A stretch of 64,000 nt of DNA from Neophaeotheca triangularis (lineage: Eukaryota). The notes under the pieces are model-generated. The model saw only the letters and a list, made by a program, of their open reading frames with translations. It ran no database searches and was not told where the DNA came from. Positions 32,208-54,356 of this stretch are shown here, one piece after another. A program made the translations under genes and the position numbers. The DNA lies in the NCBI GenBank assembly GCA_054600435.1, contig BAAIJX010000023.1, positions 124,001 through 188,000 of the forward strand, read 5' to 3'. The first letter of the stretch is position 1. Each line of letters begins with the position of its first letter.

Positions 32208-33914
32208 ATGAGCGTATCACAGCCCCGTACCTTTTGGGACGGTAGACGAAATCAATACTACTACTACGACAGCAACCGCGATGAGTTAGTGTATCAAGAT
32301 GGCACTCGGTTTAGGAGGCCGGATAGTGTGCCACGCACGACTTTGATGGCCCAGGCAACATCGCAAGTTCCGAGTGCGCCATCACAGCAAGGTCACAATC
32401 CCGATTACGAGCCGAACTATGTGCCAGGCCAAAGGAACACGAGTGCTCGCGCACAAGCGCAGAGTGCAGCCCCGAGACAACCACCAACCGACCAAATGAG
32501 CGGATTGGCAATCTCCACCGCAACCAACAGGCAATCTGGAGATCAACGAGATAATTTCAGAGGTCATCAGCCGACTGCAACAACCACTCGACAAGCGCAA
32601 GGTGAATCACAACAGGGTGCAAACCAGACGGTACGCAGAGGGGCTCCAGATCGATCTCCCCCCACAAATACGTATCAGGCTGTACCCGGTGGACAACATG
32701 CAAGACCGCAGCCTTCAGTTAATCAAGGACCGCCACGACAGGGAAGCCAAACGCAGCCCCAAGGCTCCGGGGATGTGAACTTCACGGACTCTCGCAACGG
32801 CGTTAGTGTGTCAATCAAAACCGGGTCCCCGCAAGACATCACCGACGCAGCGTTATATCGCGAGGGTGGAAGAGCCCAGCGCATGTTAGTCGGAACCGCT
32901 GGCGACGCGGAACAACTCTTCCCCGAATTCAAAAAGAAGCCACAACCAAGAAACTTCTTCAAGTTCGGCAAAGTCTTTTACACACTGTGGGCAGAGCCGG
33001 CTGGCGAGACGACGACCGCAATCTCCATGCTGGAGCCCGGTATTTTGCCTGGCCGATACGAAGGCGAAAAGATCTTCTCCAAGGTTCGGCGCTTCGTAGT
33101 CATCCGCGAAGGAGAGACCTACTGCAGTGCAATCCCCATCACCACGTATGGTTCTCGAGGTGTCGGCAAGTCTGGTGTCAACAAATCCGAGCATGTTGTG
33201 ATTTATACCGGAAAACAAGCACCTGAACCAGGCAGGGACGAATCTGGGATGCGCAAACCGTCAATTCGTGTCGATCCAGACCACCGAGACGGGAAATTAG
33301 ATCGATTGTCGAGGCTCAACCTCGCGCAGGTGTTCACGGTTCAGGTAAGCTGCAAACATTACATCGACTGCTAGTGCAGCCCCCGGACCACTGACATGTC
33401 GAAGCATAACCTGAAGGTCAAGAGCTTCGGCAAAGTACATGAGGCTTCACAGAAGCCTTTAAGAGAGCTGACTCTAGCTGTCTGGAGAGGTGATGCTTTT
33501 CCCAACTGCTCTAACAGCAACGATGACGATTCGGATAGTGACGACCAAGCCGACGACCAAGCCGGGTCTGTGCGGAAGGCTACAGCACAACCAAGTTCGA
33601 AAGAAGCAGTGCAGAAATCAGCACAAGCAATTCGCGCGCAAGCTGCCAATAGTACCTCATTAAAGAGAAAAGCTCCATCCCGCGAGGCTCGGGCTTCCCA
33701 AGGACAAGAAGATACCATCGCCGCCCTCCAGAGACAAAAAGGATTTACAAAAGAGCAGGCGTTACAGGCTTTGCTCAGGAGAAACCAACTGGCAGAGCAG
33801 AGCTCCAATGCGATGGCTGGTCCTTCCCGGGCGTATCAGGGCTCAGGGGCCCGAAAGCAAGACGAACAGGACGATGACGAAAGCGAAGAGGACAGCGAAG
33901 ACGAAAGCGACTGA
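32208..33914 (+). CDS. DUF6590-type domain protein, paralog A
   Basis: FFKFGKVFYTLWAEPAG..KVRRFVVIREG..CSAIPITTYGSRGVGK..EHVVIYTG..LDRLSRLNLAQVFTVQ, intron 33345-33404, HNLKVKSFGKV. Aromatic N-terminal motif, Gln-rich linker, acidic tail. Confidence 0.85.
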
Positions 33915-34726
33915 ATTTATCGCCGGCCGCGAGAATCCAAAGACCTCGGAGATGTTGGCGTGATGCGTGGTTGCTCTCATCACGTCGGCACCTGAGGTTG
34001 CTCCAATGCCTCTGGAAAGAAGATCGACAAACTTAGGTTTCCGCTCCAGGCTGCTCATCATACGGCGGACTTGCGACTGGAAGTCGCTTGGCTGCAACTT
34101 TTTCTTTAGGTACTTGGGACAGGCTTCCTTCAGTCCAGTTTTTGAAATTGCAGAGGTAATGGTCGCAACTCGCGATTCCACGGCTGCGGAGTAAATGTTT
34201 CTCTTGTCACGGGATCCATGTATCACGAATTAGCGAAGAATAATTAACGATATCCACGCTTTGTAAGATTCCACCACGTGAGCGTTAATCATAATTTCTT
34301 ATATACCTGCCATGTATCAAAGCTATCGAACAGCCTCCCAGCCTTAAATTTTCTGCGCAATTGCGATTGCCTACATCTTGGCGCTTATGCCGACGTTTTC
34401 GAAGATGCTTAGGGGCGGCAAACCAGGCCAATGAACAAGCCTTTTCCCATGGTGCGGTACACGGCATTGCCAGCACACCCGCCACATTCTTATGCTCTCT
34501 TGGGTAGCAGTCAGTCACATGGTACCCACCAAATAACCGAGGAAGTATTGCCGGCGAGTTCGTGGGGTGTTGCTAGTGAATGATGGTGCTGCAAATGCGC
34601 CGAAGTCACGTAGCAATTGGATTGATTGAGCGAAGAAGCTGTCCACCCACGTCCTGTGCATGGCTCCTTGGACCGGTCGCCTTTCCTTTGTAGAACTAAG
34701 TACCCTTTGCTATCAATCGGCGAACC

Positions 34727-36381
34727 ATGTCGGGGCAAAATTCCATCGGGGAGCCCACGCGATACAGGGACACTGTCACTGGAAAAGAAGTTTGGTGGTC
34801 GCGGAGTAAACACTCCTACGTGACGGCCGCTCGAGAACGTGTCAAACGGTCGAATGTGCAACAACGGCCTCAGACGCCTTCGACACAGCAGACGGAACCG
34901 GAGACCTCTCAAGAAGAGACAGACGATGAGTACGCCAAACTGCTATCAAAGATCGACACAACCGCAATGGTCTTGGTCTGGCTAACAAACCACTAGAGTG
35001 GATTCTTCCGATGGTCCCGCTCACAAGCTGGAGCAAACAACTTCCAGGGAGACGACGAATTCTCGCGGTACATCGCACTCGGCAAACCCCAGGGAAGCTC
35101 TCACTTCAGCGAATTTGCGGAGATTTAGCTCCATTAGCAGGACCGTGGAAACGACTGGTAGCCATGTAACAAACGCAAGCGGTATGTTGCTCGCTCTGCG
35201 CTCAAATGATGATGCTTTCTATTAAACATGTCAGTCAGGCTTCAAAATATCTACTAAGCCAGAAATCGACTTCAAACCGGGAACGGTAGGTCTTCTCCCA
35301 CCAAAAAATGCGAGCCTCTGGCTGAACATTCCAGGTGATTGCGATTCCAAGACCGAACAGCGAGAATGCAAGCGTCGCTGCTTTCTCTGCGGCCAGCCGT
35401 GGAGGTACCCAGCAAGTCCTGAAAATGAGGCTCGTGGTCTTGAGGACAGATGATCAAGGAACTGCAGAGTTCACTGCATTGTAAGCATGCGACCTTCACG
35501 CATACGTCGCAATTGCTGACAAGTTTCTCAGGTGTATTTCCACTTACAACGGCCAAGGCGTGGGTCTCCATGGAGTGGTAAAAGCCGATCATGTCGTGAT
35601 CTACACTGGAACAAGCGAACCTGATATCCTTCATTCGGAGCGACCACGAAGACTGCAGAACGGATCTATTGAAGGTGCCCTGCGAGAGCCTAGCATACAT
35701 GTACGACAACATCGGCCTGACGTGAAGCTTGACACACTCTCCCGTCTTGACCTCAGATCGGTCTATCGCATGAAGCATTCGACACCTTTCGCTACCATTG
35801 GATATGTGGAAGGAGACTCCCTAGCGGCACTCGTCAATTATCGATGGCAGGTTTCTCAACCACCGCAACTTCCGGCTAAGAACCAACCTCCACCGACGCC
35901 TCCATCCAGATACCGTCAAACTGCGCCCGAAACTTATGGCGTCGGTCAAGCTAGTAGCTCATCAGGGAGGCATCCACCGCATGCTAGTGGCCGCAGACCC
36001 GACGATGAAATTGCGCCAGTGATCGCGGCCTACGAAAGCGCTCGTAGATCGCAGCACGAGTCCATCAATGCTGCTGTACAAAGCTCGTCAAGCCGTGTCC
36101 GCAATGATGCACCAATGGGCGGAAGGTCCGGTTTGACCAACTTCGCCACCGAGCTCGCCACTCTCGTATCGGAGGCACAGCGGCTCAGCGTCAGAGGCCC
36201 GGAGCTAACTCGAGATGAACAAAGAAGACTCGCGGGTGACCGAACAGCTTGGGCTAGTTATGTGCGCAACCTGAAGCGGAACTGGGGAACGGAGCTAGCT
36301 AGTAGGCGAAACAACGAAGAGCAATCGGATGACGAAGAGTCGAGCCAAGGAAGCACGGAGGAGTCTTCGGACAGCGACTAG
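34727..36381 (+). CDS. DUF6590-type domain protein, paralog B (5 exons)
   Basis: Introns 34930-34996, 35182-35238, 35286-35334, 35481-35531 give a continuous ORF: DFKPGTVI..MRLVVLR..FTALCISTYNGQGVG..DHVVIYTG..LDTLSRLDLRSVY..IGYV, with acidic tail. Confidence 0.8.
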
Positions 36382-36674
36382 AAGAAAAGTCGATTGGTGC
36401 TTAACGCCGCTTATACGACCTCAACGGCGGGTGAGCATTAGCACACCGGCCGCAAGGAAATCATTATTATTGGAGTTCTCATGGAGGCTCACGAGGCGAA
36501 GCTACAGAATGCCAAGTTTCAAATAGTATCTAGTCTAAAGCAAACATTCATCTGGGCAGCAACGCATGTGTCACAAGGGAAACCTGCAAACGTGCATAGG
36601 CTTTGGTCATTCTTTGCGGCCTTGCCGCCGTCGCAGAAGCTCAGCTTTCGAGCGGGCCACGTGTTCTAGGTACA

Positions 36675-38164
36675 TCAGCCCGAAAGAGCTAAGTTCTCGG
36701 CATGTCTTCGCAAGAGCCCGCTCGACTCTGGCTCCTCGAGATCTGGCTTGGAAATGGGCGTTGTTGCAGGCGATTCAGCATCGTGTAGCTCTGACGGATC
36801 GCGTTTCCCCATGTTGAAGAGCCATGTTTGTGTGCGAACTTTTGGAGACTCCTTTGCAGCAGATCTAGAAATTTGAGAGTGCATATCGGTGGGCATGCTT
36901 TCCGGCCGTGGAAACTCAGAAAGCCAGGGTCGAAGTTCAGTGACAAGTGGCATACTCGCGACGCCACTGGAAAGCGAGGCACGGCTCCACCTTGGGTCTT
37001 GGGTAGAGATTGCACCTGGAGAAGAAGGAGTCGGGATCGGAATCTCAATGCCTTGCTTCTGGCATAACTTCCCCAGCCTGTCTGTGTCCTGAAGAGCCTT
37101 TTCATAGTCGTTTTCTAGTAACTCCCGAGCCTGCTCGAAATCTTGTTGAAACTGCTCATCCGATATCTCGAGGACCTGGTCTTGATCTTTCGCGAGGTCA
37201 CGCCGCCCGAGCGCCTCCTGATGCTCTTCCACAAATTCCTGCAACCGTTCCAGATATACCGCAATATCACCTTTGCGATCGTAGTACTCAGCCAGCAGAG
37301 GGTGAGTAGTACTTGCAGTCTCATTGTGCTCTGAAGGTGGAAGAATAGCCAGGGGAGGGTCTCGAATGGCCGTGGGTATTTCTTGCACACTGCTGGCAAA
37401 AGTCTCGGCCGAGGCTACGAATTCCTCTTCACGTTTGATGAGGCGGTATTCAAGGGCATTGAACTTGACTTCCAAGCTGCTGAGCACATGTTCTTGGTTC
37501 TGCAAGGCCGTCTGACCGGACTGCGCTTGTTGATAAAGCTGTTCGAGCTCCAGATGTGCTGTGTCTAATCCGACTTGGTCTAAGAGGCTGCGAAACATGC
37601 CTAGTAGCTTGCACGAAGTTTCCCATTGAAGGTTTCTCAGATCAGAATGGTTCTGCCGCTCGTTCTCTAGTTCCACTCGACTCAGCAGAGCTCTATCCCG
37701 AACGCGTTGCATTCGGCGGTGCTTTTTCTTGAGAGACTTTGTTCCCTCCGCTGATTGACGGTCCCATAAGAGCTCATGGTTCGGCGAGTCAATTGCGTGG
37801 TCTGCAATCTTAGAAGGGCTCGCTATTAGCCTAGGCGAGGGACGGCTGTGACTAAGTCCTCCTCCAAGTGATGACTTGTTGTCTCCAAAGTTCACTCTGC
37901 CCACCGACGCATGTTGTGTAGCTACAGAAGACAATAGTTCGTTATCTGGGCGACCAAAACGAGCACCAGTCTCCAGGCTATTTGCTTTCGGACGTAGATA
38001 CGAGTCACACGATAGTGTCCGATCGAGCACCGATCTCGGAATCTCCTTGGTACTGGCACGAGAATCGCTGCAAGACTGTGACCTCCTGGGCAGACGGGCG
38101 GATATCGTTGGCACTGCCTCTGGTCAGCACGTCATAACGCTCCTGCGTTTACCGCACACTTACT
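36675..38164 (-). CDS. Unnamed coiled-coil protein, paralog 1
   Basis: 479-codon ORF. Core PLLAEYYDRKG..EH..RRDLAKDQD..SDEQF..LCQKQGIEI is shared with ORFs at 48238 and 52977. Start probably across intron 38114-38163. Confidence 0.75.
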
Positions 38165-39039
38165 CCCTCACAAGCTACCTAATGGCGGGCCTTTGTTTCG
38201 AGCTTGGTGTTGTGTGAAAGTACGGCACGATTTGCATTCTCACGGGTCACGGGCAGGGCTGTAGCATATGGCTGACCTTGCTTTTGTCGTGAAGATGAGG
38301 GCGCAAAAATCTGGATCACCCCGTCAACAGTCGAAATGAGTATCGGTCAGGGTGGCACGGACCGTTGCAGGCCGCGCGCTGTTGAGTCACCTATGCTGTC
38401 GGCTCCCGTTACGACTGGGAAACGTCCTCTCTCTTTCCATTAAGTGCAAATTTAATTGTTGTATCAGGTTGAGAAGAGGATTGAGCTTTGAAGTAAAATC
38501 AGCTTTAGCCTTTTGGCTCTCGTAGCTACCTGTGCTCCGAAGGCGTCCCAAGGGTAAGTCACTATACCTAGGTACTTCGTGTCGTGTAACCAGTGCCTTG
38601 GTCATGAACCCAATCTAAACATGTACCTAGGTAGCGGTAGCCTCCCGAGGCTGTCTTCTCGCTTCGGGGCAGCAGAGCCTGCTATGCTATGAAGAGGAGC
38701 GAAGTTGTTCTACTCACTGTAGTTGATCTACTTACTGTGCAATATATATATGCTTCTATGTTAGCAAATGTCCACTGTTGCTCGACCTCTTTACAGCTTG
38801 AATGATATGGTAATAACGCCCACAAAATGGACGACGTGGCCTTGCAGGAGGAGGTTTCACAACGTGTATGCAGTACATGTAGTGTCTCGTAGAAAGCTCT
38901 GTTGTAAAGTGCTGTACTGCACATGTGATGATTGGCCATGTATGCCTGAGGCATTAACCAGAAGCTGCATTCTGCCTTTGCAGTAGTAGTAGCTAGTTCT
39001 GTAATCAATCAAGCAAAGTCATCAGAGTTCGTGCTGCCA

Positions 39040-40560
39040 TTACAACAAGCTCTCGGCTTCGGGTGTGGGGGTTTCTAGACGACCACCTAGGCATGGTCCC
39101 AAAACAGTAAGCTAGAAGCGCTAGTGGGAAGTTGAGCGTTCTAAATAGTAGGTAATCGAGCACTCGTTTTAGGCCCCTATGCCCTTTAGCACTTTAACCA
39201 GCCTACTTTGCCACTTGACCCCAAGGGTCCACTTCAAGACGACTACGACTATGGCGTACACCCACTAATATTAGCCTAAGTGATGCGAAACTGAAAGACT
39301 ATTTAAGTAAGGTTAAGGGAAACACATAACATCTATATAGAAGTTACTAGCGGTTAAGCTAACAGCTGCTAATTACAACCTTAGTTCTACGTATCTCTAC
39401 TAGAACTATTCCGTTACTAAGAAGGTTAGCCCCTAGATAATGCCGTAGACGGTAACGAGGTATAGGAGGTAGAAAACATTAGAAGACGAAGAAGGTAAAG
39501 GAAGATACCTTATATCTAGTAAATCAGAAGACCTATAACCCTAGCTAGAACTAGTAGGTACCTAGAAAGGATGTTAAGAATATACGGGAATAGATATATA
39601 AGTTTAAGACATGATCGAGATCCGAGAAATATACGAAGAAGACATAATTGATTATAGAGCTATAGAGGCTCGAGATTAACCCTAAAGGGAACATATCTAC
39701 TAGTAGTAACCCCGAAGGATGTCACGGTTACCCTAAAAAGCTCTAAAACTTGTAAAGATAACGTACCTAAAGAAACTCTAAGAACCCAAAAACTATGCCT
39801 AAATGATATCTCGAAGGATAGCTATAGTAAAAGAAAAGAACCTAGGCGCCTAACATAGAATCTGTAGTAGCTAACGCCTATAAGCTATAGCCCTAAATAG
39901 TCGTACTATGTAATAGTGACCGTAGTAGCTAGTAGTATACATGTACTCGTATACTACTCTACTAGTAACGAGAAAAATTAAAGCCTCGAGGCTCGTCGTT
40001 AAGACTTCTCCTAGCTCCTTTTTCATTTTAGTAAGGACGATTTATATAGTATTCTAAGCTCTAAATAGGGCCCTAAGGTAGCCGACCGACGTTATAAAGG
40101 CGGCTATTCGATAACGCCGCTCATCTCTACATCGCTAAAGCTTATAGCTAGGGGACGGAGCGATAGGGAAAACATTAGTTATAGGCTACAAAAATACAAG
40201 TGGTTCTATACTACTTAGTAACAGCAAGCTCAAACTAAAGGTTTAGGGAGTAAGCACATCGTTAGCCTAATGTAAGTAGTGTGGCATACTAGTAGCGGTA
40301 GCATAAACATTTTCAAGAGCCCTACCTAAAAAGAGTCGTTCTTATAGCGATCTAAGGGCACGGCATGATGGTTTAGGCGAAATTCTGACCATCTAGCGTT
40401 ATAGACCTAAGAAGAGACGCTCATTAGTTTAGAAGCCGAGTCTACAGCTATCGAGTATCGCTTGCCTAAACGTGAAAGCAATTATGCAGCCTTGACGTAG
40501 AAACTCGCGGCTAGCCTGCTCGAGCTGCTAATTACTCTCCCTGACCGGTCTCGTGCGAGT
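39040..40560 (+). mobile_element. RIP-degraded transposon relic including a chromoviral (Ty3/Gypsy) integrase C-terminus and chromodomain
   Basis: AT-rich, TpA/TAG-saturated, no ORFs. 39379-39605 translates P*FYVSLLELF..VDGNEV*EVENIRRRRR and, after a frameshift, YLVNQKTYNPS*N**VPRKDV (cf. HPVFHVSLLEP..WEVE.I..YLVKWKGY..NSW.P). Boundaries approximate. Confidence 0.75.
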
Positions 40561-41072
40561 CCCCCTGGCGTAGCGTCGAGCGATGGTCCGCGATCAGAGC
40601 CCGCACTCTTCTCCGCTGGCTTTGTTACCGGGCTTATGGACACCGGCTATCATGCATGGCCCTTGTCTACCGAGTAGCCCCGAGCGCATAGTATGTCCGT
40701 GGACCCGAACTTTGAGACATCAGAGTCCATGCCACAAGACCTTTCAACCTTTCGTGCTCGGTCGTGGTTACGCTCTGACTTCTCTATAACTTCCGTGGAT
40801 AGACCTACACCAACACTAGCTTCTGTTGCAGGATTTGAGGATGATGCGGTGGCTCCTTAACATTCTTAAAAGGTACTTTTCACTCGGGCAGCCCAGTTTG
40901 CTTTCTTTCAGTCGCAGCCGCTGCTTGCATCATGAAGTAACTTGGTAAAACTCGAAAGGTCTTGGCTCCTCTCGTAGCAGGTATGTCATGTTGACACCCG
41001 CTGCTAATCGTATGAATTATGCCTGAAACTGTCGCTGCTGCATACGTGGACCACCTAAGTCTCGTTGGTGTA

Positions 41073-44623: not shown

Positions 44624-46362
44624 ATGTCAGGTCTCGAAATTGCCGGTGCAGTCTTGGGCGTGGTTGGGGTTTTGATGCAAACTCTCAACGAGAAAGGCAC
44701 TCTCTCATCGCTAATAAAGGGACCCACGGACTCCGAATGCAAAAGAAAACAATACATGGCCTGCCTCAGTGCACAGCGCCTACGCCTTCGTGCTTCTCTC
44801 GAGAAGGCTTTACGAGCTTTTGCCAACCCTGAAGAGCTCGGGCTTATCTTTGACAAGTCATGGAGCAACGACACTTGCTGGAAGCGATTAGAAAGCAAAG
44901 TGGAAGTCGCAGCTCCGAGACAAGCGGAGGTCGTCAGGAACTTCTTGAATCTCATGAATGTCGCGGTTTTTGACCTTGCTGAAGAGCTCGACATCGATCT
45001 TCAACCTTCTCTGGAAAGTAGCCTTTTCCATGACGTCCAATGAGCACTGCTAACACCGTCCGTACAGGAAGGTCCCGCAGGCCGCCTGAGAAGACAGCGC
45101 TTCGGCCGCAGGATTCGCTTTAATAGCCGTTTAGCGTCGATAGAGAGGTCACTTGATAACATGCGAAACTTTTGCGCCGATGCTTGCTCTGCGTTGGAGC
45201 TACTTGTGGATCTGCGTTCCGACGGGACCCCCGATCTGGCCTTCGAGGCCAGAACAGTCGCCAGTGCGCAGGGTCGAGTTGCTTTATTGGTCGCAGCCGG
45301 CGAAGATCTCTACCAGAAACCGACTTCTCATGACCTGTACATCAAGCTTGGTCATCAATTCGAGGAAACAGGAAGACCAGACCCAGGAAGCCATCAGATT
45401 CAATGCTCGAGGTGGGTGGCAATCTGTTGCTGCTTTTGCATTTCCTTGACTAATCGAGAGAATTATCGGTCGATAGGTCACCAGCTATCGTGGCGAATGG
45501 AGAGGATCCGTACCTACATCCCGTACAATTCGATGTTCTCAGCAATGCGACTCCGAAGGCTTCAAGTGGACGTTCCCCCGCTCCGGCCGCTGTCTGTCCT
45601 CGTCGAACATATGGTGCTTCAGCAATCAATATGGAGCTCACAACCGATGAAGACGGCAAGTACCGAGGTATGTGGTGTACGGACAGCAGAACACAAGTTG
45701 ATCTTGATCTTTGCCGTCATCAACGACAGAAGGTGGAGCTCGCCATGGCGCTGGATGATCAGTCTAAAGAAATGCCGACATCGCAACTCTACGGCTTGTG
45801 CAGAGACATTGCCACTTCAATGCTTATGCTCGGAGCCACTCCTTTGGCTCGCAAGCCGTGGGACCAGTCCAGCATATTCCTCCTGAGACACTACAACTCG
45901 CATTCCATCTCGGTTAGCGACGCTTATCTATCGGGCATTGGCGGGTGGGTATCAAATTTTCCCCCTCACCGTACCACTGTCCACCGCTTGCTAATACTGA
46001 GTAGCGCAAAGCACCACCATGGTCGAGATGAGGCACTTGTCGCACCAGTAGGGAGACCTCCTGAATCCTCACGAGAACGCAGCAGTACTTTCCCACAACT
46101 AGGGATAGTTCTGGCAAAAATCTTGGCCTTCACGACAAGATGTCCGATGCCAGCGCGAGCGACATCGCAAACACTGCAAATTTGCGAGGTGCACAAGTGG
46201 CTGAAAACTCAACAAGATCTGCCATTTGCAGTGAAACAAATCATTGCTCGGTGTCTACAGATGTATGAGTACGAGAACCTCACGGCGATGGAGATGATCG
46301 AGAAATACCTGAACAACATCCTTCGACCGCTGCGCGTGGAAGCTGCAAGGTACGTGAATTGA
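44624..46362 (+). CDS. HeLo-like N-terminal domain plus DUF7580-type C-terminal domain protein (possibly degenerate)
   Basis: MSGLEIAGAVLGVVG N-terminus with helical domain. C-terminal LCRDIATSMLMLGATPL..PW..IFLL..LGIVLAKI..IIARCL..ILRPL. Intron 45411-45476 is clean; the first intron (from 45018) needs a non-proximal acceptor to keep frame. Confidence 0.65.
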
Positions 46363-46691
46363 CGAGTTTCAGATATGGCTTCGATTTTAAGTGGCAAGTG
46401 TGCGAGTCTGGCCGTCCAACATGCTCACGCTGCTCTGCGCTACTGTATCGAAGGGACAATATGGGTCGTGGGTGGAGTAAACTCACCGCAAGATGCTTGT
46501 TCTTGTAACACGGAAAGCGATAGGCATGAAAAGGCAGTTGGAATTAGGCTTCGGATTTTATTATAGAGCTCACAAAAGCCAGTGTTTGTTCTCTAAAGGG
46601 ATTGAGATAGGAGAGGTCTTTACTATAGGCTCAATCAATATTCTTCCGTATCATCGGCTAGCTCCGACGCCAAATATACGAAAGCCCGTAA
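46258..46691 (+). repeat. Direct repeat copy 1 (3' end and 3' flank of the DUF7580-type gene)
   Basis: 46258-46328 matches 49391-49461 (3 mismatches in 71 nt by eye); 46492-46691 aligns with 49470-49670. Confidence 0.9.
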
Positions 46692-48237
46692 TATTCACAA
46701 GAGGAGGGAAGTTGGTCTACGTAATATACACTTCCGTGTAAGCAAATAACCACTGTTTGCTGGTTTACGGCTTGAATGACAGGGTACCAGCGCCTACAAA
46801 ATGCACGCCGTGGCCCAGCAGGAGTTAAGGAGGTCATCTCGCAACTTGCATGCAGTGTCCCGTTGAAAGCTTCGGGTGTTGGGGTTTCAGACGTGGGGTT
46901 TCAGAAATACCTCTCGCTACCTCCTAGGCCACCCACGTCGGTATTCCACAGGTAAGGCATCAAACAAAAGCATCGTGCCGTTGATTACGGGGCTCACACT
47001 TGCAGATATTGCTGCCCAAATGATGCGAAGGACCATTCAAGTAAGGTTACGGGAAACCCACATCGTGCTTGCGGAAGTCACTAGCGGTCAAGCTACCACA
47101 ACTGCTAATCGCAACGTCATTGCTACCTTAGGTTGTCACCTGGCACCTTTCTTTGAAGCTTGCTACATCGCAAACACTACCGGCCACAGCGATATCGATT
47201 TCAAGAAGGGATAAATGCAAGACTAGAACTCCTTCGATACGCGAAGCACCCGACATAATTCGACGATGCTGCGGCCTGCTGTGCCCTGGCATCTGGATTG
47301 GGCGAGTACTGGCGCTGATTTGAGGCTATGCTCCTTGATTTGATGAAAGCTCCAAATGTTAGGGACGGTGCGTCGAAATTTTGGTAAGGCTACTCACATA
47401 TTCACTGGTGCTGTATTGCTGCGAGCTTCCGCGACACCCAATGCTTGGTTGTAACCTTGGTTTGGCAGGGGGGTGCTATTTGACGACATGGCTGGCCAGA
47501 ATTATCGTAGCTCATTCTTGAGCACCGGTGCTCATTGTCCGGACTTGCGAGTATGTCCGTGATTTCTAGAGCGCGATGCTTGTACTTATAGGTGGCACAG
47601 TATGAGCTTCGAGCAGCCCTCCCGGCATCTACTCGATCCAGCAGACGTGTTTGTCAGCTGCTCAAGTTGCGAATTACGACAGCGCACACTCTGGCTCCTG
47701 GAGCATGTGAGTGTACTTCTACATGTTGAGCGTTCGATGCACATGCAAGTTACCAGGTTGCCTTCCAATAAGTGGCGTATGTATGCGACTGGATCACATG
47801 GCCGATCGGTGACGGCTTTCCGCGCATTTGGCGACCTTCGAAGCTGGCGCTAAGCGAGATACTCGTGTTTGTAAATTGATTAGATACAACACAGGTTTCT
47901 TGCCGACGGGAAAGATGGAAAGCAAAAGGAGCGGAGCAAGAAGGCAATGCAAGTCTACTTGCTTGGATGAGTGGGTACCGGTCGTGAAAATCCCTTGCCG
48001 TCCAAAACGGAATCTGACATTATTGCCCGCTAACAAGTATCGGCCTTCGCATTTCTTGCTGGTAGTGAGTGGCACTGTTCTGCGCTGCACGGACCTAGCT
48101 TGCATGGTCCAGTGACGATCCTACCGGTGAAGCATCGTTATTCAACAACTCTCGCCACGAAATAGCTAGCTCACCAACCGAAATCATTTACGGATACTTT
48201 GTCACTTCACGACAGTGGGGATGACTTCACTTTCTCA

Positions 48238-49401
48238 ATGGCGGAAACTCAGCCAACGGAGAAACCCTTCATTTTGGATCAAGATCGTCTGGCAGACATT
48301 GCAGCAGCATTCCATGCCCACGGAAAGCTCATTGAATTACATGATGAATTACTGCTCGCTCGCTACGATGCGACTGCTCGAACGGACGACTCGCGGACCA
48401 AATTGCAGCATGTTAGTGAATCGATTCAAGCTATCGCCTCAAGATTTGCGCTTCGGTCCCAAGAAGGGCTCGAAATAATGCCAGATCTGTCTTTTGACTC
48501 ACTGCATAGCCAGATGCAAGACGATCAGGCCGCCTTCACGAAGTGCGTAGAGGCGGCTATGCTGCAAGAAAAGCGCGTCAAGACTTTGGAGCACAGTTGT
48601 CTAGCAATGCATAGACAGCTCAACGCTGCTCTTCAAGCTTTCTTACGAGACGTTCCCGGGATCCCAACGGCTGTCGCATTTCCCCCCCTTCGCAAAGTCG
48701 TCGATAATCGGGTACCAAGCCCGTCATTGGGTGTCCCGTCTGAAGCCCAGGACTACTTCGAGAAGGTCGGAGCACTCCACTTGCTGGAGCGAGAATGGCA
48801 AAACCTGGAGCTTGACCACCGAATCGATTTCGGAAACCGCCAGCATGCACGAGACCAAGACCGTGAGCTTTCCACCACCGATACCGAGTTTGAAGAGCAA
48901 TATCATTCGAACCGTGCAGAGCTAGCTGAAAAGATCCAAAGTACCAAAGACGAAGCAGCAGCGTTGCATTCGATCTGCAATCAGCTTCATCTGGACCTAG
49001 TGCGTCTGCAATTTCGTCAGCCGCCTGACTCTCCGGGAGAGCATAGGCTGTATCCCTCGGCGTCTGATTCACTAGATGAACATCACATGGAGGAAGACAT
49101 CGCCGACGAGCCCCCGGAACACCCTTTTCCGCTCATCAGTAAAACAGTTGAGAATTGGTTGAATTTGACCAATGTCTCGCCCCCTGTTGAGAAATTTACA
49201 CACGATGAGGTGAAATGGGGCAGCCCTGACTCAACAGAGCACTACAAGGGTGCAGGGTCTGGAATGGATCAAGAAAGGATCCTCATGACAATTAAGTCTT
49301 CCACTGATTTACCAAAGGTGCTAGAACAGAAGTCGGAGGAGGCTACAAGATCTACCATTCGTAGTGAAACGGATCGTAGCTCGATATCTGCAGATGTATG
49401 A
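48238..49401 (+). CDS. Unnamed coiled-coil protein, paralog 2
   Basis: Intronless ORF; VPSEAQDYFEKVG..DH..NRQHARDQDRE..TDTEF..ICNQLHLDL..VENWL. Confidence 0.78.
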   Translation: MAETQPTEKPFILDQDRLADIAAAFHAHGKLIELHDELLLARYDATARTDDSRTKLQHVSESIQAIASRFALRSQEGLEIMPDLSFDSLHSQMQDDQAAFTKCVEAAMLQEKRVKTLEHSCLAMHRQLNAALQAFLRDVPGIPTAVAFPPLRKVVDNRVPSPSLGVPSEAQDYFEKVGALHLLEREWQNLELDHRIDFGNRQHARDQDRELSTTDTEFEEQYHSNRAELAEKIQSTKDEAAALHSICNQLHLDLVRLQFRQPPDSPGEHRLYPSASDSLDEHHMEEDIADEPPEHPFPLISKTVENWLNLTNVSPPVEKFTHDEVKWGSPDSTEHYKGAGSGMDQERILMTIKSSTDLPKVLEQKSEEATRSTIRSETDRSSISADV

Positions 49402-49670
49402 GTACGAGAACCTCACGGCGATGGAGCTGATCGAGAAATATCTTAACAACATCCTTCGACCAGGTTTGTGATGCTTGTTCGTATGACAAAAAGTGGCAGG
49501 AATGAGATGGTAGTTGGAATCGGGCTTCGGATTTAAAGGTCACAGAAGCTGGTGTTGATTCTCTAAAGAAATCGAAATAGGAAAGGTCGTTACTATAGGC
49601 TCAATCATTATTCTCTCGTATTATCCGCTCATTCTCCTGGCTCTGGCACCGAACATACGAAAGCCCGTAA
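49391..49670 (+). repeat. Direct repeat copy 2 (with ~155-165 nt internal deletion relative to copy 1)
   Basis: cagatgtatgagtacgagaacctcacggcgatggag..aacaacatccttcgacc, then gatgcttgttc..tactataggctcaatca..atacgaaagcccgtaa. Confidence 0.9.
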
Positions 49671-50005
49671 CATCCCCTGAAACAGTACTGTTGCGTCAAA
49701 AAATTCGTGTCAGCCCGATGCGTAGGTAGAGAGCTAGCGCAACTCCAACGGGCCATCACGGCTCAGAAAGCTGCACGCATAGCCACCCTCGATCCTGTCA
49801 TCAAAGAGCACACCTCAAAGTCGTTGCAATCCGTCGTCTTATGTCTGTCGCTGACCCAAACCCGAGCCACAAGCTCCGGTTCTGGCCTCGTTGTGAAGTA
49901 TTCGGGAGGATCTAACAAGATACTGCGTCATATCCAGTCTAGCCTTGTCGAACTGTCGATGTCGGATGACCATATATTTATAAGTATGTTTGCTACGCTA
50001 GCTCT

Positions 50006-52054
50006 TCACTCGTCGTCACTGTTGTAGTCGTGAGTCTTTCGGGGTCGTGCAGTTCGTCCAGCAGTGCGCTGTTGCGCAGCGTGTTGCGAAGTACGCCTTT
50101 GTCCAAAGCCATCTTGCGTAGAACCTGACGTTTTCTGACCACTGCTGGAGGCTTGCGCATATCCCGCCAGCGGCAGTGAGCTGGCATAGCTCGGAGGCGT
50201 TGCGCTATAGCTGCCCGAAGCCTGGGCTGCACTCCCGTGTCCAGATGAGTAGACGTGATTGCCGCGATTGATAGAGATTGGTTGTGTTTGGAGTGGTTGT
50301 GTCTGGCTGTATCCCCTGTGAGCGTAAGATACAGGCTGCTGCTGAGCGCCTTGAGAAGCTTGTCCGTCCATGCGCCGTGATGACGAGCTTGCTTGCGACG
50401 TTTGTGTCTGCTGTGTACGTTGCACAGCAGGGTTCGAGGAGCTTCCTATTCAATCTCACCAGTCAGCAGTTTTTTTTTTGGGCTTGACGAAGATGCGGCT
50501 CTAGATATATAACACACCTGCTTGGGGCATAGAGCTTCCCGCCTGACGGGGATCAACCTGTTGCGGGAGCGACCGAGGAACCGTTGACGACGCTGTCACA
50601 ACAGAGGCGGCACTATCGGCACGGTCGTGGCTGTCCGTGTTTGCTGGTTGGTCTCTGGAGCTCGCTTGAATCGTTGGCTGTGACGAAAAGGCAATGCCTA
50701 ATCCTTCTTGCCAGACTTCCTGGAACTGCGTGATTAGATGGGTGATCGAGTCGGGGTTCACAAGACCACAATCCTTCACTTTGACGTTGTGTTCGACCGT
50801 GGTCACCTTGGCAAAGTTGACACGAGAGACTGCGTGGAGAAGCTCATCCCGCCTGAAAGGGTCTACCTTAATCGGAAATGGCCTCATCCCATCTTCTCCG
50901 GGGCCCGGCGCTTCACCCCGTAGCCGTTGTGGTGGCTGCCTGCTAGTGTGGATGATTGCGTGGTCGGACTTCCTGACACCTCGTTTTCCTACGCCCTGAT
51001 AGTCGTATGTGAAAATAGGGCTGGCCAAATCATTAGTGCTCATGCTTAAGGGCACAGTGAACTTTGAAGGAGTATGGCACTTACATTGCCGAGCATGACT
51101 TTTCGCCTTGCCGGATTGTGACGAAACGACGTATCGTCACATACAATCGCTCTCCGAACCTGGCGTCCCGTGTTACACTCGAAGCGTTGTCAATCAAAGT
51201 GCCGTGAGGCTCGGCATGAAGCATCGCAAAGACCTATCTAGACGTCAGCTTTGTACCATTGAGATGGAGCGGCCTGCACCTACCCTTCCGACTCTGAAGA
51301 AGCTGTTGGGCTCTTTGCGCCTAATGTACGTTTTGATTCCAATTAGCTACTAACCTACCGTCAAGCTCAGGGAATGCGATGCTTCTCAGTACGTACAGTC
51401 ATCCAGCTGTTCATACTCCTTCTCGTCGCGGTCATCTCCCTTGATGCGTTTGTCGGGTCTGACGCCCGACTTGTACGACTGGGGATCGGTAAGATACTGG
51501 GGCGGCCCTTTTTCATAAACTGTTTGAAGCGGCTGTTTGCTGGTGCCGCCGGTCACATAGTATCGGCTGAGACCTGTAAGGGAGTTCTTCTGGCGTACAA
51601 CATTGCCATCGCTTAACTGCTCAATCGGCTGACTTGTCGGTGCCGACGAGGGGGCCGGAGAGGAGCTAATCGTTAATGACTGCATTTTGAGAGGCAGGTT
51701 GGAGCTTCCGCGGGAGGTGGTATATGCTGCAGGGGAAGCGGACGACCCTTCGCCTCCAATCTTACTATTTGTTTGGGACGCATCTTTCCAGACCAGACGC
51801 GGATCAGGTTTCACTTGAGTCCCCGGGCTGAACTCATGGGGCGACCAGTCAGTGTGGTCCCACTCTCGCAGAATAGTCAGGCTCGTTGTTAGAACTCACG
51901 TTGTTGGCCATGTGTCTTTGATGTACTGTGGTGACACTTTATGGCCACTTGGATGAAGTCGAAACACGCCTTCTTGAGGGAGCCATTTGAAGTTCTGCTT
52001 GAGGTGCGGATGGTACCTCCATTCAGGCTCCGTTGGATCCTTGTTGGACGACAT
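50006..52054 (-). CDS. DUF6590-type domain protein, paralog D (6 exons)
   Basis: Introns 51828-51899, ~51322-51391, 51234-51283, 51021-51084, 50446-50517. Motifs FFRVGRVFAMLHAEPHG..TIRRFVTIRQG..CSAIPIFTYDYQGVGK..DHAIIHT..LHAVSRVNFAKVTTVEHNVKVKDCGLV. Gln/Ser/Tyr-rich tail ending DYNSDDE*. Confidence 0.8.
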
Positions 52055-52976
52055 ATTCGGAGCAGCACCGACCTTGAGAAGCCATGGATTCAAGGGTCAT
52101 CGCTGCAGCGACTGCACTTAAGTAAAATCAGGAAGCTCACATCACCAGGACGTATTTACCTCTTCACCGGTCTGGAAGCTGCTGTCACCCACACTCAAGC
52201 AGCTTCGCTCAATCTGCGCAGCTGAGATATGCTCACCTGATCTTTCGGCATTGCCGTACAACCGCGCAAGGCTGCGTCAATGTACCAAGAACGTCGGCTG
52301 GCTTATTGGAGAGCAGAGGCACACGTCAAGCTACAGTATGACATGGATTAACAGATTCCCTTCGAGTCTTGATGTTTTGGTCGGGAATCAATGATGAAGT
52401 GGCACGTAGCTTTTGAGTTCTTGCGGCCCGACGGGGACTACCCCAGACAACCCCACCTTTGTCTTATCTCAACGTCGATAAGGTGCCTCAGCTAAGGTAC
52501 CTAAGGTAGGTAAGTACTATGAGGTGCACCTAGCAAACCACCTGCAGGCTACTACCTAGGTAGTCCACACGATTTACATGAAACTGCGCTCTTACCTACA
52601 GTAGCGAACTTTTGTGTTAGAAGCACGGACCAAAGGTAGACGCGTTAACGGCTGTCGTTGCTTCTAGCGCTAGAATGTTACGGCTGTCATTACTGAGCTC
52701 AAGGCCGCCGAGTCGAGCTTGCTCTCGTCGATGTTTGTTGACACAAAGGTTTCCGCATGATGCGACAACAGTTGCTTTGCCTGTACACTAAATCTTGATG
52801 CGTCCCAACCGTAAGGTGTGTTGCACCGCACGGCTGACACTTTCGCCGTATGGCCGACCATGTCCGCGCGTCGAATTTCCCCTGATCGGAACACCGCAGG
52901 CTCGCAGCGCGTTCGTGGAAGATGGTATTTGGTCTCCCCGGCCTTCTGGACCACAATCTACCGCGATGTGGTCAAT

Positions 52977-54356
52977 ATGTCTACTTCCCTTACACGGTTC
53001 GCTTCTAGCTCATTCCACCCACCGGAAGAACGTGATCCACGCGATGATATTGACCCCACTCTCACTGATCAATACGCCGATTGGACGCATAACACGACCA
53101 ACATTGAACGGGAAAGCGATCACTCAAGCCCAATGGCGGATCAAGAGCAAGGGTTAGACACCATACCACTGTTAGACAGTGGAGGCAAAGCACACCTGGC
53201 ACTCCAAGCTGTGTTCGAAAGCCAGAAGCGAGTTACATCTCTTCGCGAGTCTTTGCTGCATGCCAGGTTGCGAGCCGCGACTGAGATGCAAAAGATGGTT
53301 GAAAAGGCTCGCCATGTGGAAGAGTCAGTCACAGCGATTGTAGCGACGTTCTCGTTGCAGGAAGAGGAGAACATGCGACGAACTCCCCCAAATTCCTTCA
53401 TCTCCATACAGCGCCAACTGCAAACTGACAAGGTGACATTGACTGAGACTGTTCAGGCGGCGGTGGAATGTCAGTCTCGAGTCAGTACGCTGGAGTACGA
53501 AATTGGCCAAGAAGAAGAGCGATTCGATCAAGCCTTCAAGGAGCTTATAGACCACATTCCGAATGGCCGTTCGCTCCATGCTGCTATTCCGGAAGTCAAT
53601 GTCGAAGAAGACCACGCCGCGAATCCGGACAGTAACATCCCCGTCGAAGCGAGACACCTCTTCGCCAAGATTGGCGAACTGCGGCTACTAGAGCAAGAAC
53701 GATTGGACGTCGAAGATGCTCACGCAATCGCCGAAAGTGATCGTCAATTCGCTAGAGACCAAGACCGTGAGCCATCTGAAAGCGATTCTGAGTTCGAAAG
53801 GCTTTACCTCGATCATATGACCTCGTTGCAGCACCGTGTGCACCAAGCAGAAGCACAAGTCGCTTCTTCGAGACTTTTGTGCGAGCCATTGAACCTTGAT
53901 CTGGATACGTTAAGATACACACGACCTCCGCAAGAAGCTTTCGAGCACCCAACACGCTCGCTTTTGCCCGAACATGCCGCTTCACCTAAACAGCAAATTC
54001 CGGGGCAGGTCGAAGGGGACCTCCCGGCCGGGGCCGAAGGGAATATACAGCAGTGGTTAGACACCGTGTCCGAGCAGGACGAGCGGCAAGGCCCACCGTC
54101 AGACCCCGGTTCGGAAGTGAAAATTCTGTCCACAAGCGCAGCGTTGGCAAACGATGTCCAAGCTCTGTATCATGAGCCAGGAATTTGGGCCAGTGATACA
54201 TCTGCAAAGCCTCTTCTACAGACGCCTGAGGTCGACCTGGTTGCAACAACCAAGTCGCTGAATTTGGCCAGTCTGCGGCCTCAGAAGTCACAGTCACACA
54301 TTGTCGACCGACATCGAAGCCCTCTTCCACCTCGAAGGAGTTCGACGGGGGGCTGA
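52977..54356 (+). CDS. Unnamed coiled-coil protein, paralog 3
   Basis: Intronless ORF (ATG 52977, alternative 52860); IPVEARHLFAKIG..AH..DRQFARDQDRE..SDSEF..LCEPLNLDL..IQQWL. Confidence 0.78.
   Translation: MSTSLTRFASSSFHPPEERDPRDDIDPTLTDQYADWTHNTTNIERESDHSSPMADQEQGLDTIPLLDSGGKAHLALQAVFESQKRVTSLRESLLHARLRAATEMQKMVEKARHVEESVTAIVATFSLQEEENMRRTPPNSFISIQRQLQTDKVTLTETVQAAVECQSRVSTLEYEIGQEEERFDQAFKELIDHIPNGRSLHAAIPEVNVEEDHAANPDSNIPVEARHLFAKIGELRLLEQERLDVEDAHAIAESDRQFARDQDREPSESDSEFERLYLDHMTSLQHRVHQAEAQVASSRLLCEPLNLDLDTLRYTRPPQEAFEHPTRSLLPEHAASPKQQIPGQVEGDLPAGAEGNIQQWLDTVSEQDERQGPPSDPGSEVKILSTSAALANDVQALYHEPGIWASDTSAKPLLQTPEVDLVATTKSLNLASLRPQKSQSHIVDRHRSPLPPRRSSTGG

Follow-up and report, generated by a model that had tools for sequence, protein, structure and literature searches.

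A diverged island of DUF6590 genes and genes for a helical protein in Neophaeotheca triangularis: a candidate effector and binding-partner module

A 22-kb island in a Neophaeotheca triangularis contig carries four DUF6590 genes together with three genes for an unnamed helical protein (here cc) that are diverged paralogs of one another, and neither family has a copy outside the island within the 64-kb stretch that we analysed (the window). We favor, at a probability of about one-half, the reading that the island arose by tandem amplification and divergence of a two-protein module, an effector with its binding partner. The DUF6590 protein would be the first component and would carry a MazF-like domain. 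The cc protein would be the second, built of two long helical hairpins and binding the DUF6590 domain directly through its most conserved motif. That motif would cover a conserved face of the MazF-like domain that may be catalytic and includes the residues that we place, by manual reading of motif and strand order, as the MazF catalytic Arg and Thr. Family memberships, fold likeness, fused protein records, and a co-fold that scores above its controls support this reading.

Results

Layout of the island

The whole window was searched in six frames with local HMMs of both families, and all gene models (Table 1) rest on reading frames, splice motifs, and homology. The initial annotation had placed four DUF6590 genes and three coiled-coil paralogs between a pectate lyase and an MDR-type gene, and this picture holds. 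All four DUF6590 genes exceed the Pfam cut-off for PF20233 (27 bits), and the six-frame scan of the window gave no fifth copy. A single family HMM matches all three cc genes (E 1e-56 to 2e-70), and the window contains no additional match. Both flanking genes were recovered, and the wider surroundings are housekeeping genes (Sec2p, sedlin, mitochondrial L31, a DEAD helicase, and clathrin light chain).

Table 1. Features of the island and its flanks (positions in the window)
Feature	Position	Strand	Details
Pectate lyase gene, left flank, outside the module	29573..30984	+	Pfam Pectate_lyase_4, E 7e-32 (30481-30984) and 3e-05 (29573-30529)
DUF6590 gene 1, canonical copy	32208..33914	+	Inferred exons 32208-33344, 33405-33914; PF20233 140.9 bits (ORF 32064-33374)
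DUF6590 gene 2, most diverged copy	34727..36381	+	Several inferred introns; N-half exon 35335-35481, last exon ~35533-36381; PF20233 60.9 bits on last exon (ORF 35485-36381); local HMM matches 34721-34921, 35536-36357
cc1, tail-to-tail with DUF6590 gene 2	36675..38164	-	ORF 36675-38123; family HMM E 2.1e-70 at 36996-37760; start 38164 from the initial annotation
AT-rich spacer, possible transposon relic	38200..41070		Varies between isolates; holds short repeated pieces
DUF6590 gene 3, domain part	41073..42162	-	Exons ~42019-42162, 41073-41951; PF20233 66.4 bits (ORF 41073-41999); local HMM matches 42034-42162, 41079-41948
Upstream ORFs, Cys/His zinc-finger-like motifs	42671..43992	-	Separate gene, or the N-terminal portion of gene 3
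Candidate "HeLo-like/DUF7580" gene, head-to-head with gene 3	44624..46362	+	Introns inferred at 45412-45476, ~45945-46004
Local duplication, copy A	46212..46659	+	3' end of HeLo-like candidate and downstream DNA; direct repeats D1, D2, D4, 76-89% identical to 49345-49629
cc2, tail-to-tail with DUF6590 gene 4	48238..49401	+	ORF 48166-49401; family HMM E 1.1e-56 at 48286-49044
Local duplication, copy B	49345..49629	+	3' end of cc2 and downstream DNA
DUF6590 gene 4, between cc2 and cc3	50006..52054	-	At least 4 inferred introns; PF20233 102.9 bits (ORF 50501-51136); local HMM matches 51929-52060, 51401-51742, 51281-51334, 51084-51233, 50600-51019
cc3, head-to-head with DUF6590 gene 4	52977..54356	+	ORF 52815-54356; family HMM E 4.4e-64 at 53190-53960
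Medium-chain (zinc-type) dehydrogenase/reductase gene, right flank, outside the module	54688..55578	-	ADH_N E 5.4e-16, ADH_zinc_N E 3.6e-18

Every cc gene adjoins a DUF6590 gene, as first described (junctions 36381/36675, 49401/50006, and 52054/52977, the last being a common upstream region of 922 bp). With four DUF6590 genes, three cc genes, and one other in a row, such adjacency arises in 134 of 280 gene orders (48%). Thus, adjacency within the island is by itself no signal; the signal is the co-clustering of the two families.

The local duplication and the strong divergence among paralogs that had been proposed were both recovered, the latter at 34–49% identity across the shared domain part. 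Two other elements of the initial picture were not confirmed. The spacer (GC 0.40 at 39000-39999) had been called a transposon relic; no transposon domain, and no Pfam family match at all, was found in the 11 ORFs of 38340-41170. The stretch is AT-rich and carries an indel between isolates, isolate X2 skipping 39408-40822, and its segments 39202-39254 and 39632-39706 are matched by short pieces of other X1 contigs. The "HeLo-like/DUF7580" label falls short of the Pfam cut-off (15.3 bits against 27; E 0.016), and the in-frame stop of that gene at 45041-45043 would have to be removed by an intron whose splice sites are weak. In the ORFs scanned, none of the Pfam families of fungal conflict systems, such as HET or NACHT/NB-ARC, rose above cut-off.

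Two diverged families

At all 31 key positions, DUF6590 gene 1 has the residue typical of the family. Its inferred intron, with splice sites read from the sequence, spans 60 nt (GTAAGC...CTGAC...AG). Orthologue-like relatives P0155 and P0156 align over 98% of the query at 43% and 39% identity, full-length relatives occur in several Dothideomycete genera at 32–43%, and the C-terminus gives a UBA match below threshold (E 0.052). Genes 2–4 have lost several near-invariant DUF6590 residues; genes 3 and 2 share 38% identity over 293 residues. Divergence among the island copies extends to predicted interface positions. The ORFs upstream of gene 3, which would make it a domain fusion if they belong to it, gave Pfam matches below threshold only (Zn_ribbon_ZPR1, E 0.025; zf-C2H2, E 2.1). 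The initial annotation had compared the island with fast-evolving fungal loci. The last exon of gene 2 differs from isolate X2 by 13 synonymous and 10 nonsynonymous changes, which in this small, incomplete sample of one exon and two isolates looks like constraint rather than diversifying selection.

The cc paralogs stand far apart: cc2 and cc3 share 33% identity (E 1e-38), cc1 and cc2 share 21% (E 4e-11), and cc1 finds cc3 at just E 0.011. Judged by sequence searches, they belong to a large family without a Pfam entry that is newly recognised here, with 564 cluster representatives at E ≤ 1e-3, of which 257 reach E ≤ 1e-10; most of the matches span ~230 positions. The proteins measure ~390–460 aa in our window models and mostly 400–550 aa across the family, and contain no Pfam domain. 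Their conserved motif, Y-[FY]-D-R-K-G-D-x-G-[VI]-x-x-E-R-L, is canonical in cc1 (YYDRKGDIAVYLERL) and diverged in cc2 (YFEKVGALHLLERE). The public collection contains the cc3 protein under the name P0004, in a version that starts earlier. An AF2 model of cc1 (pLDDT 78) contains four long helices, these above 95.

The DUF6590 domain is predicted to have a toxin-like fold

An AF2 model of the gene 1 orthologue P0155, built from 73 sequences, is mostly above pLDDT 90 in the DUF6590 domain (residues ~205–385). As modelled, this domain of ~175 residues has the CcdB/MazF (PemK/Kid) toxin fold, a likeness of fold only. Against 48,161 PDB representatives, ranks 1–11 were all MazF, Kid, or CcdB (Z 6.4–7.9), the type III toxin CptN came at rank 17 (Z 5.5 over 105 aligned residues, rmsd 4.2), and the other listed rows match the C-terminal helical hairpin only. 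In a second structural search (VIA), all 50 entries listed were MazF or CcdB (Z 6.5–8.2, 89–117 residues aligned). On the Z scale of both searches, a best value of 7–8 is usual when a model has no clear match, and rows less than 1 Z apart are tied. Foldseek against the PDB gave no match at E ≤ 0.001; its listed rows are MazF-family toxins (probability 0.75–0.99, TM to target 0.51–0.67) except for H. pylori HtrA at rank 42.

The initial annotation had suggested a putative RNase effector. The toxin-only fold matches agree with this; no significant sequence-profile link was found. PemK_toxin had no match in 73 DUF6590 members even at E ≤ 10, a PDB profile search with DUF6590 returned acidic-tail noise only, and hhalign against MazF stayed below significance (E 0.4 and 0.22), aligning the DUF6590 ALPITT with the MazF VPCTT. 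By manual reading, the DUF6590 motifs K-V-R-R-F-V-V and P-I-T-T resemble R-P-x-V-V and P-C-T-T of MazF. Across the alignment, polar residues form an almost invariant, enzyme-like set (R263 72/73, T/S282 73/73, Y283 73/73, H298 70/73, D333 72/72, and H355 70/71). The shared fold proves no function for the domain. CcdB chains (Z 6.8–7.1, 91–97 residues aligned) fall within about 1 Z of MazF (7.9–8.2), so the fold cannot separate an RNase from a gyrase poison.

Fused records and a predicted interface

Two protein records from other fungi combine the domains in a single polypeptide, with the order reversed between them: P0021 (1048 aa; DUF6590 211–365, cc domain 636–870) and P0226 (610 aa; cc domain 77–313, DUF6590 494–569). 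They came from searches seeded separately with each family, one among 150 cc representatives and one among 75 DUF6590 relatives (2 of 225 in all). P0021 may be a merged model of two neighboring genes. P0226 seems to continue into an apparent intron at the intron place of genes 2–4, and we take it for an unspliced single open frame, not a merge. By comparison, at one metagenome locus the cc domain of a cc relative is joined to an aspartyl protease, and no DUF6590 lies within 10 kb. Linkage in other genomes, proposed at the outset as a check, was examined through these two fused records, which show it, and this one locus, which lacks it.

We co-folded P0021 residues 195–395 and 625–885 without alignments, that is, halves of one record rather than the window's own pairs. 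The score, a model confidence, was 0.64 against 0.15 for the best of three controls. Among solved complexes, 51 of 78 attain the mark so passed, as do 2 of 108 mismatched pairs; for eukaryotes, the figures are 39 of 65 solved pairs without a like complex and 2 of 126 unrelated pairs; 7 of 44 neighboring genes drawn blind also reach it. At least 42% of contacts were common between runs, and partner pLDDT was at least 66. The most conserved motif of each family is predicted to sit at the interface, with K251 (71/74), T/S272 (74/74), D324 (73/73), L330 (71/73), and D331 (69/73) on the DUF6590 side and Y/F780 (65/68), F/Y781 (64/68), G785 (65/68), E792 (57/68), and R793 (55/68) on the cc side. The earlier idea of a partner gains from both the fused records and the co-fold; binding in the cell and any toxin/antidote behavior are putative.

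Discussion

Under our reading, the first component would target nucleic acids, with endoribonuclease activity the likeliest form, and the second would mask or regulate it in the manner of an antitoxin. Nuclease activity, inhibition, toxicity, and any role in allorecognition or against viruses are all putative. A possible but rather unlikely alternative is an ordinary cellular complex, in which a nontoxic RNA- or protein-binding DUF6590 protein works with a helical scaffold or adaptor and the island is plain tandem expansion, with no role in conflict, toxicity, or immunity. The intact key residues and full-length Dothideomycete relatives of gene 1 are in keeping with this, as are its subthreshold UBA match, the housekeeping surroundings, the hint of constraint in the SNP sample, and the adaptor-like fusion to an aspartyl protease away from any nearby DUF6590. 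In addition, DUF6590 proteins have a small beta motif at the N-terminus, a helical hairpin at the C-terminus, long disordered linkers, and acidic tails as in nuclear proteins. However, an unbiased fold scan matched toxins of one superfamily only, the invariant polar residues look enzyme-like, and the partner's conserved motif is predicted to lie over that polar face. Repeated local duplication with strong divergence, including at the predicted interface, would moreover be unusual for a housekeeping complex.

We consider it improbable that two unrelated, lineage-expanded families came together by chance in a region prone to duplication, with the fusions being model merges and the co-fold a false positive. 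The chance level of in-island adjacency, the rarity of fused records, the cc locus lacking DUF6590, and the blind-drawn neighbors that reach the co-fold mark all leave room for it. Against it stand opposite-order fusions from independently seeded searches, a P0226 that does not read as a merge, and a co-fold far above its controls whose interface coincides with the best-conserved columns in each family. Least probable of all is a CcdB-like action, with DUF6590 poisoning a topoisomerase or binding another protein rather than cutting RNA, and the helical partner as antidote: the tied Z scores would allow it, but the best structural rows are all MazF or Kid endoribonucleases and the motifs resemble those of MazF (manually read; hhalign E 0.2–0.4).

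It is useful to set the proposed effector and partner module beside known systems. Like the DUF6590 domain, the bacterial toxins of MazE-MazF, Kis-Kid/PemI-PemK, and CcdA-CcdB combine a small barrel with a C-terminal helix, and nearly whole chains align at Z up to 7.9–8.2. As in these type II systems, the product of a neighboring gene is predicted to bind the conserved face of the effector, and there are multiple diverged copies. Unlike them, DUF6590 has no detectable sequence similarity to CcdB/MazF toxins, and its domain is ~60 residues longer, with inserts, inside proteins of 430–600 residues with disordered linkers, introns, and extra terminal domains. The antitoxins MazE, Kis, and CcdA are small DNA-binding proteins, whereas the cc partner is a helical-hairpin protein without a Pfam domain. 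The DUF6590 and cc genes often lie on opposite strands, with no operon, and a toxin role here is putative.

CapRel SJ46 is a single-chain (fused) toxin-antitoxin defense protein. P0021 and P0226 similarly join effector-like and partner-like domains, the layout expected for trigger-released auto-inhibition, although the folds and the kingdom differ and the window copies are separate genes. The toxins of type III ToxIN/CptIN systems are restrained by repeated RNA antitoxins; CptN aligns to the DUF6590 domain, more weakly than MazF does. Fungal conflict loci include het/NLR allorecognition genes and the Spok and wtf spore killers. The island's paralogs are likewise clustered, duplicated, and diverged, with indel variation between isolates, and a poison-plus-antidote logic is conceivable. 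The island differs in the conflict domains, which in the ORFs scanned are absent above cut-off or, for HeLo-like/DUF7580, subthreshold, and in showing no excess of amino-acid change in the one exon sampled. Overall, the DUF6590/cc module may represent a eukaryotic counterpart of bacterial toxin-antitoxin pairs.

Results

Two gene families confined to one island

The initial annotation had placed four DUF6590 genes (genes 1–4) and three coiled-coil genes (cc1–cc3) in the island at 32.2–54.4 kb, and both sets are upheld here (see table). The DUF6590 genes score 140.9, 60.9, 66.4 and 102.9 bits against PF20233, for which the Pfam gathering score is 27 bits; the Pfam matches of genes 2–4 are single exons only. 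Local HMMs built from relatives and run on all open frames of at least 15 residues across the whole 64 kb recovered the same four genes exon by exon, and found no member of either family in the window outside 32.2–54.4 kb. Pairwise comparison of long ORFs shows the three coiled-coil genes to be true but distant paralogs: cc2 and cc3 share 33% identity (E 1e-38), cc1 and cc2 21% (E 4e-11), and cc1 and cc3 are related at E 0.011 only. The strong divergence claimed for the paralogs is likewise borne out among the DUF6590 genes, with 34–49% identity over the common part of the domain; genes 2 and 3 share 38% over 293 residues.

Island genes, their family matches, and a related metagenome locus
Feature	Gene	Match	Strand	Match from
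Gene 1 (DUF6590)	32208–33914	32064–33374	+	Pfam PF20233
Gene 2 (DUF6590)	34727–36381	35485–36381	+	Pfam PF20233
Gene 3 (DUF6590)	41073–42162	41073–41999	-	Pfam PF20233
Gene 4 (DUF6590)	50006–52054	50501–51136	-	Pfam PF20233
cc1 (partner)	36675–38164	36996–37760	-	Local HMMs, whole window
cc2 (partner)	48238–49401	48286–49044	+	Local HMMs, whole window
cc3 (partner)	52977–54356	53190–53960	+	Local HMMs, whole window
L002 partner-protease fusion	9797–11845	partner domain residues about 108–281, protease 327–414	+	
L002 neighbour of the fusion gene (DUF6594)	8372–9463		-	

As annotated, the island is flanked by a pectate lyase on one side and a zinc-type dehydrogenase on the other. Housekeeping genes, including those for Sec2p, sedlin, mitochondrial L31, a DEAD-box helicase, clathrin light chain and a CID protein, lie farther out on both sides. 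The island is therefore embedded in the core genome, and their presence at both ends argues against an accessory or subtelomeric location. Also outside the island, a gene at 12766–14595 (-) encodes a DUF7923 domain (E 9.5e-60) followed by several CCCH zinc fingers.

The further claim that every coiled-coil gene adjoins a DUF6590 gene on the opposite strand is correct as to strand arrangements, but adjacency in itself carries no signal. With four DUF6590 genes, three coiled-coil genes and one other gene, all coiled-coil genes stand beside a DUF6590 gene in 134 of the 280 possible orders. Thus, the signal is co-clustering, not adjacency.

Other elements of the island

For the single gene labelled HeLo-like/DUF7580, that label is not borne out. 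Its stretch at 45454–46362 matches DUF7580 (PF24476) at 15.3 bits (E 0.016) against a cut-off of 27, the exon alone gives 12.4 bits, and Pfam finds no HeLo-type match in the N-terminal exon; the candidate also contains an in-frame stop and needs a poorly supported intron. Likewise, for the supposed transposon relic at 38200–41070, an AT-rich stretch, a transposon origin was considered and set aside, as the 11 ORFs scanned there contain no transposon domain. Pfam matches of the zinc-finger-like ORFs that lie upstream of gene 3 all fall below threshold, and the island ORFs scanned with Pfam (sets of 19, 42 and 10) contain no HET, NACHT/NB-ARC or repeat sensor domains. The proposed local duplication is real: 46212–46659 and 49345–49629 are 76–89% alike. 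The duplicated piece comprises the 3′ end of the HeLo-like candidate and downstream DNA, with its copy at the 3′ end of cc2, so the last cc2 codons and the 3′ flank share their origin with the end of the HeLo-like candidate.

DUF6590 resembles MazF/CcdB in predicted fold

Gene 1 has 75 relatives at E ≤ 0.001, on which PF20233 is the sole Pfam family. Those with names are Dothideomycetes, for example Hortaea, Recurvomyces, Zymoseptoria, Zasmidium, Cladosporium, Oleoguttula, Rachicladosporium and Cryoendolithus. DUF6590 genes seem to be clustered in other fungi too, since two Oleoguttula sp. paralogs (LTR95_001278 and LTR95_001280, our P0206 and P0228) lie on one 42,971-bp contig, and two others (P0157 and P0187), for each of which the longest contig is 10,379 bp, probably also share one.

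We modelled the structure of P0155, an orthologue-like relative of gene 1, from 73 sequences. The prediction has a small N-terminal beta unit (8–39), long disordered linkers, a beta-rich domain at about 205–385 with pLDDT mostly above 90, and a C-terminal helical hairpin (466–520) followed by an acidic tail. The two end regions gave only sub-threshold Pfam matches: WW at E 0.027 and OCRE at E 0.066, in 2–3 members, and RHH_1 at E 0.15. In the C-terminal part of gene 1 itself, 33405–33911 (+), UBA is likewise sub-threshold at E 0.052.

In a Foldseek comparison of the DUF6590 domain with the PDB, the listed entries are MazF-family toxins (probability 0.75–0.99, TM to target 0.51–0.67) with one exception, an HtrA protease at rank 42; no match reached E ≤ 0.001. 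With VIA, all 50 listed entries are MazF or CcdB (Z 6.5–8.2), and nearly whole chains are aligned. An independent scan of 48,161 PDB representatives placed MazF, Kid or CcdB at ranks 1–11 (Z 6.4–7.9), with 89–109 of 94–118 target residues aligned, and the type III toxin CptN at rank 17; all other rows match the C-terminal hairpin alone. A Z of 7–8 is middling by the comparison tool's own warning. The fold match draws its weight from a single superfamily filling the list with end-to-end coverage.

The model offers the small beta-barrel and C-terminal helix of the CcdB/MazF (PemK/Kid) fold, and sequence profiles do not place the domain in that family. None of 73 DUF6590 members matches PemK_toxin (PF02452) at E ≤ 10, a profile search of the PDB gave no link to MazF, and hhalign was not significant against either E. 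coli MazF (E 0.4) or a profile of 69 bacterial MazF relatives (E 0.22). These non-significant alignments are collinear with the fold match, laying A-L-P-I-T-T on the V-P-C-T-T of MazF; by manual reading of strand order, K-V-R-R-F-V-V falls at the place of MazF R-P-x-V-V. R263 is kept in 72 of 73 DUF6590 sequences and T/S282 in all 73; in E. coli MazF, R29 and T52 are the residues that we take to be catalytic. The near-invariant polar residues (K261, R263, R269, T/S282, Y283, K290, K295, S296, H298, D333, D340, S343, R344, H355, N356 and K358) look, from conservation, like the set of an enzyme.

Gene 1 has a single clear 60-nt intron and the family residue at all 31 key positions examined. Genes 2, 3 and 4 each apparently contain an intron just before the first domain strand, between G-[KR] and V-F, and a second within the A-L-P-I-T-T motif. 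Because of these apparent introns, the stops between their exons are best read as intronic. The two positions (exon starts 35335, 42162 and 51233; exon ends near 35481, 42019 and 51084) are apparently common to the three genes and have no counterpart in gene 1, which fits an origin of the extra copies from one diverged sub-lineage. Gene 4 departs from the near-invariant residues at K261 (to T), W227 (to H), D333 (to F) and D340 (to H), and genes 2 and 3 at D331 (to R), D333 (to H), N356 (to S or H) and K358 (to P). The first strand of gene 2 is barely recognisable; hmmalign did not place the N-half exon of this gene, which was compared by eye only.

A large family of helical partners

A profile of the three window paralogs, searched against 1.84 billion cluster representatives, matched 564 of them at E ≤ 1e-3, of which 257 also reach E ≤ 1e-10. 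Lengths are mostly 400–550 residues, with about 230 positions matched. Against the resulting family HMM, cc1, cc2 and cc3 score E 2e-70, 1e-56 and 4e-64. A Pfam scan of 150 listed representatives left 148 without any family; of the other two, one has a sub-threshold match to FBF1 (19 bits against a cut-off of 45) and one, P0021, carries DUF6590. A homologous-protein search with cc2 only gave 0 matches, and one with a 16-sequence alignment returned only 5 of its own members.

An AF2 model of cc1 from 65 sequences predicts two long antiparallel helical hairpins (helices 2–61 and 65–126, then 154–192 and 201–235), with pLDDT mostly above 95 and a disordered tail after the helices. No Foldseek match of this model reached E ≤ 0.001, and those returned are generic coiled coils alone, SMC arms, BAR domains and colicin hairpins among them. 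Helix 3 opens with the hallmark motif of the family, Y-[FY]-D-R-K-G-D-x-G-[VI]-x-x-E-R-L, a looser form of which (as a regular expression) occurs in 90 of 153 partner-family sequences. The motif is present in cc1 and in diverged versions in cc2 and cc3.

Both domains occur in single protein records

Of 150 partner representatives and 75 DUF6590 relatives, one of each carries both domains in a single record. P0021 (1048 aa), found with the partner profile, has DUF6590 at 211–365 and the partner domain at 636–870. P0226 (610 aa), which the search with gene 1 turned up independently, carries the partner domain at 77–313 and the first half of DUF6590 at 494–569; past A-L-P-I-M-T it continues in unrelated residues, exactly at the apparent intron place of window genes 2–4. 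We read P0226 as one unspliced open frame and a true fusion, and P0021 as possibly two neighbouring genes merged in the gene model. Whether merged or not, the records show the two families joined in other fungi, in both orders.

Co-folding of P0021's two parts gave 0.64, against 0.15 for the best of 3 controls. Among solved complexes, 51 of 78 attain the mark applied, as do 2 of 108 mismatched pairs; for eukaryotes the figures are 39 of 65 solved pairs without a like complex and 2 of 126 unrelated pairs. Agreement between the runs covers at least 42% of contacts, with partner pLDDT of at least 66 and alignments left out. The prediction supports, short of proving, binding between the parts of P0021, not between the window's own pairs. 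In the predicted interface, the partner motif (773–802) meets DUF6590 at K251, S272, G274–G275 and the loop D322–E332, residues that rank with the best conserved columns in each of the two families. K251 and S272 adjoin the putative catalytic pair of Arg and Thr.

The link has a counterexample in a metagenome contig, L002, found through the partner family. Here the partner domain is fused to a retropepsin-type aspartyl protease, and a DUF6594 gene adjoins. A full six-frame scan found no DUF6590 within 10 kb of the partner gene, which counts against the link, so other effectors too may be served by the partner family. The related-locus search with the 16-sequence partner alignment gave two loci that are one same stretch.

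The array in a second isolate

Three DNA data sets (X1, X2 and X3) come from one organism and study, and the window's DNA may derive from X1. Contigs of X2 cover all 30 bins of 35000–54999. Their 109 matching pieces comprise 12 at ≥99% identity, 44 at 95–99%, 45 at 90–95% and 8 below 90%. Thus, the whole array is present in a second, clearly different isolate. X3 has no match on 35000–54999 at 80% likeness, which is no proof of absence. At 39408–40822, X2 lacks 1413 bases and has 27 other letters instead, and short pieces of other X1 contigs match 39202–39254 and 39632–39706; this stretch is a repeat-bearing spacer that varies by indel within the island. The base differences of X2 total 967. 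The last exon of gene 2 accounts for 23 of the 40 listed, 13 being synonymous and 10 non-synonymous, a small and incomplete sample with the look of constraint, not of decay or strong diversifying selection.

Discussion

We propose that the island holds repeated, diverging copies of an effector-plus-binder module. The effector core would have a MazF/CcdB fold and probably act on RNA. The helical protein would bind across the conserved face of the effector, thereby masking or regulating it, and in some fungi both parts would form one chain, an auto-inhibited protein. For this reading as a whole we put the probability at about one in two. At the predicted contacts, effector and partner alike differ from their family consensus: D333 and D340 are absent from gene 4, and cc2 and cc3, which adjoin it, have neither the K nor the D of the K-G-D motif. 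These departures could reflect co-divergence of pairs.

The main rival is a non-toxic complex of an ordinary kind, which binds nucleic acid or protein and has only the small barrel in common with the toxins. It is favored by the conserved, orthologue-like character of gene 1, by the housekeeping genes around the island, and by the occurrence of the partner with a protease; set beside the enzyme-like residues and the predicted contacts next to the putative catalytic pair, we consider it rather unlikely. Somewhat less likely still is the boldest form of the effector-plus-binder proposal. DUF6590 and its helical partner would then be a widespread fungal toxin-antidote system, with a MazF-type endoribonuclease fold and an antidote unrelated to any bacterial antitoxin, encoded as gene pairs and as single auto-inhibited chains. 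Genetic conflict would be its setting, with possible roles such as a selfish poison-antidote element, an allorecognition trigger or a suicide response to mycoviruses, and the island would be an arms-race array changed at the contact surface on both sides. Chance co-location of the two families is improbable, since both fused records, and a co-fold that passes its controls with conserved motifs in contact, must then be accidents. CcdB also appears among the fold matches, and the fold by itself would allow a CcdB-like, protein-poisoning mode of the DUF6590 domain, the most improbable reading of all.

It is useful to contrast the effector-plus-binder module with the type II pairs MazEF, Kis-Kid and CcdAB, which it resembles in layout and effector fold. 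It differs in that sequence-profile membership failed and in that the partner is unlike any antitoxin named by Pfam; we know of no other antitoxin that it resembles. Nor do the DUF6590 genes have beside them a gene for a small DNA-binding antitoxin of the AbrB, RHH or similar type. Their neighbours encode helical-hairpin proteins of about 390–460 aa, by our gene models, that have no Pfam domain, and the weak RHH_1 match is in the C-terminus of the DUF6590 protein, not in the partner. Because of the failed profile membership and the dissimilar partner, we file the module outside the type II pairs.

To our knowledge, MazF/CcdB-type toxins are treated as prokaryotic. No mention of DUF6590 was found in the literature searched, although fold-level annotation may exist in databases such as InterPro, and titles and abstract openings revealed no fungal MazF-like protein. 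A 2008 survey (PMC2446400) states that no eukaryotic sequence met its authors' toxin-antitoxin criteria.

If the fold likeness reflects function, DUF6590 and a non-Pfam family of at least 564 clusters would become a testable fungal two-component system, for which both the interface and the candidate catalytic residues are defined. Bacterial conflict modules with a eukaryotic counterpart would then number one more. Even a non-toxic module would leave three results that hold as annotation, namely the fold assigned to DUF6590, the partner family and the interface predicted between the two.
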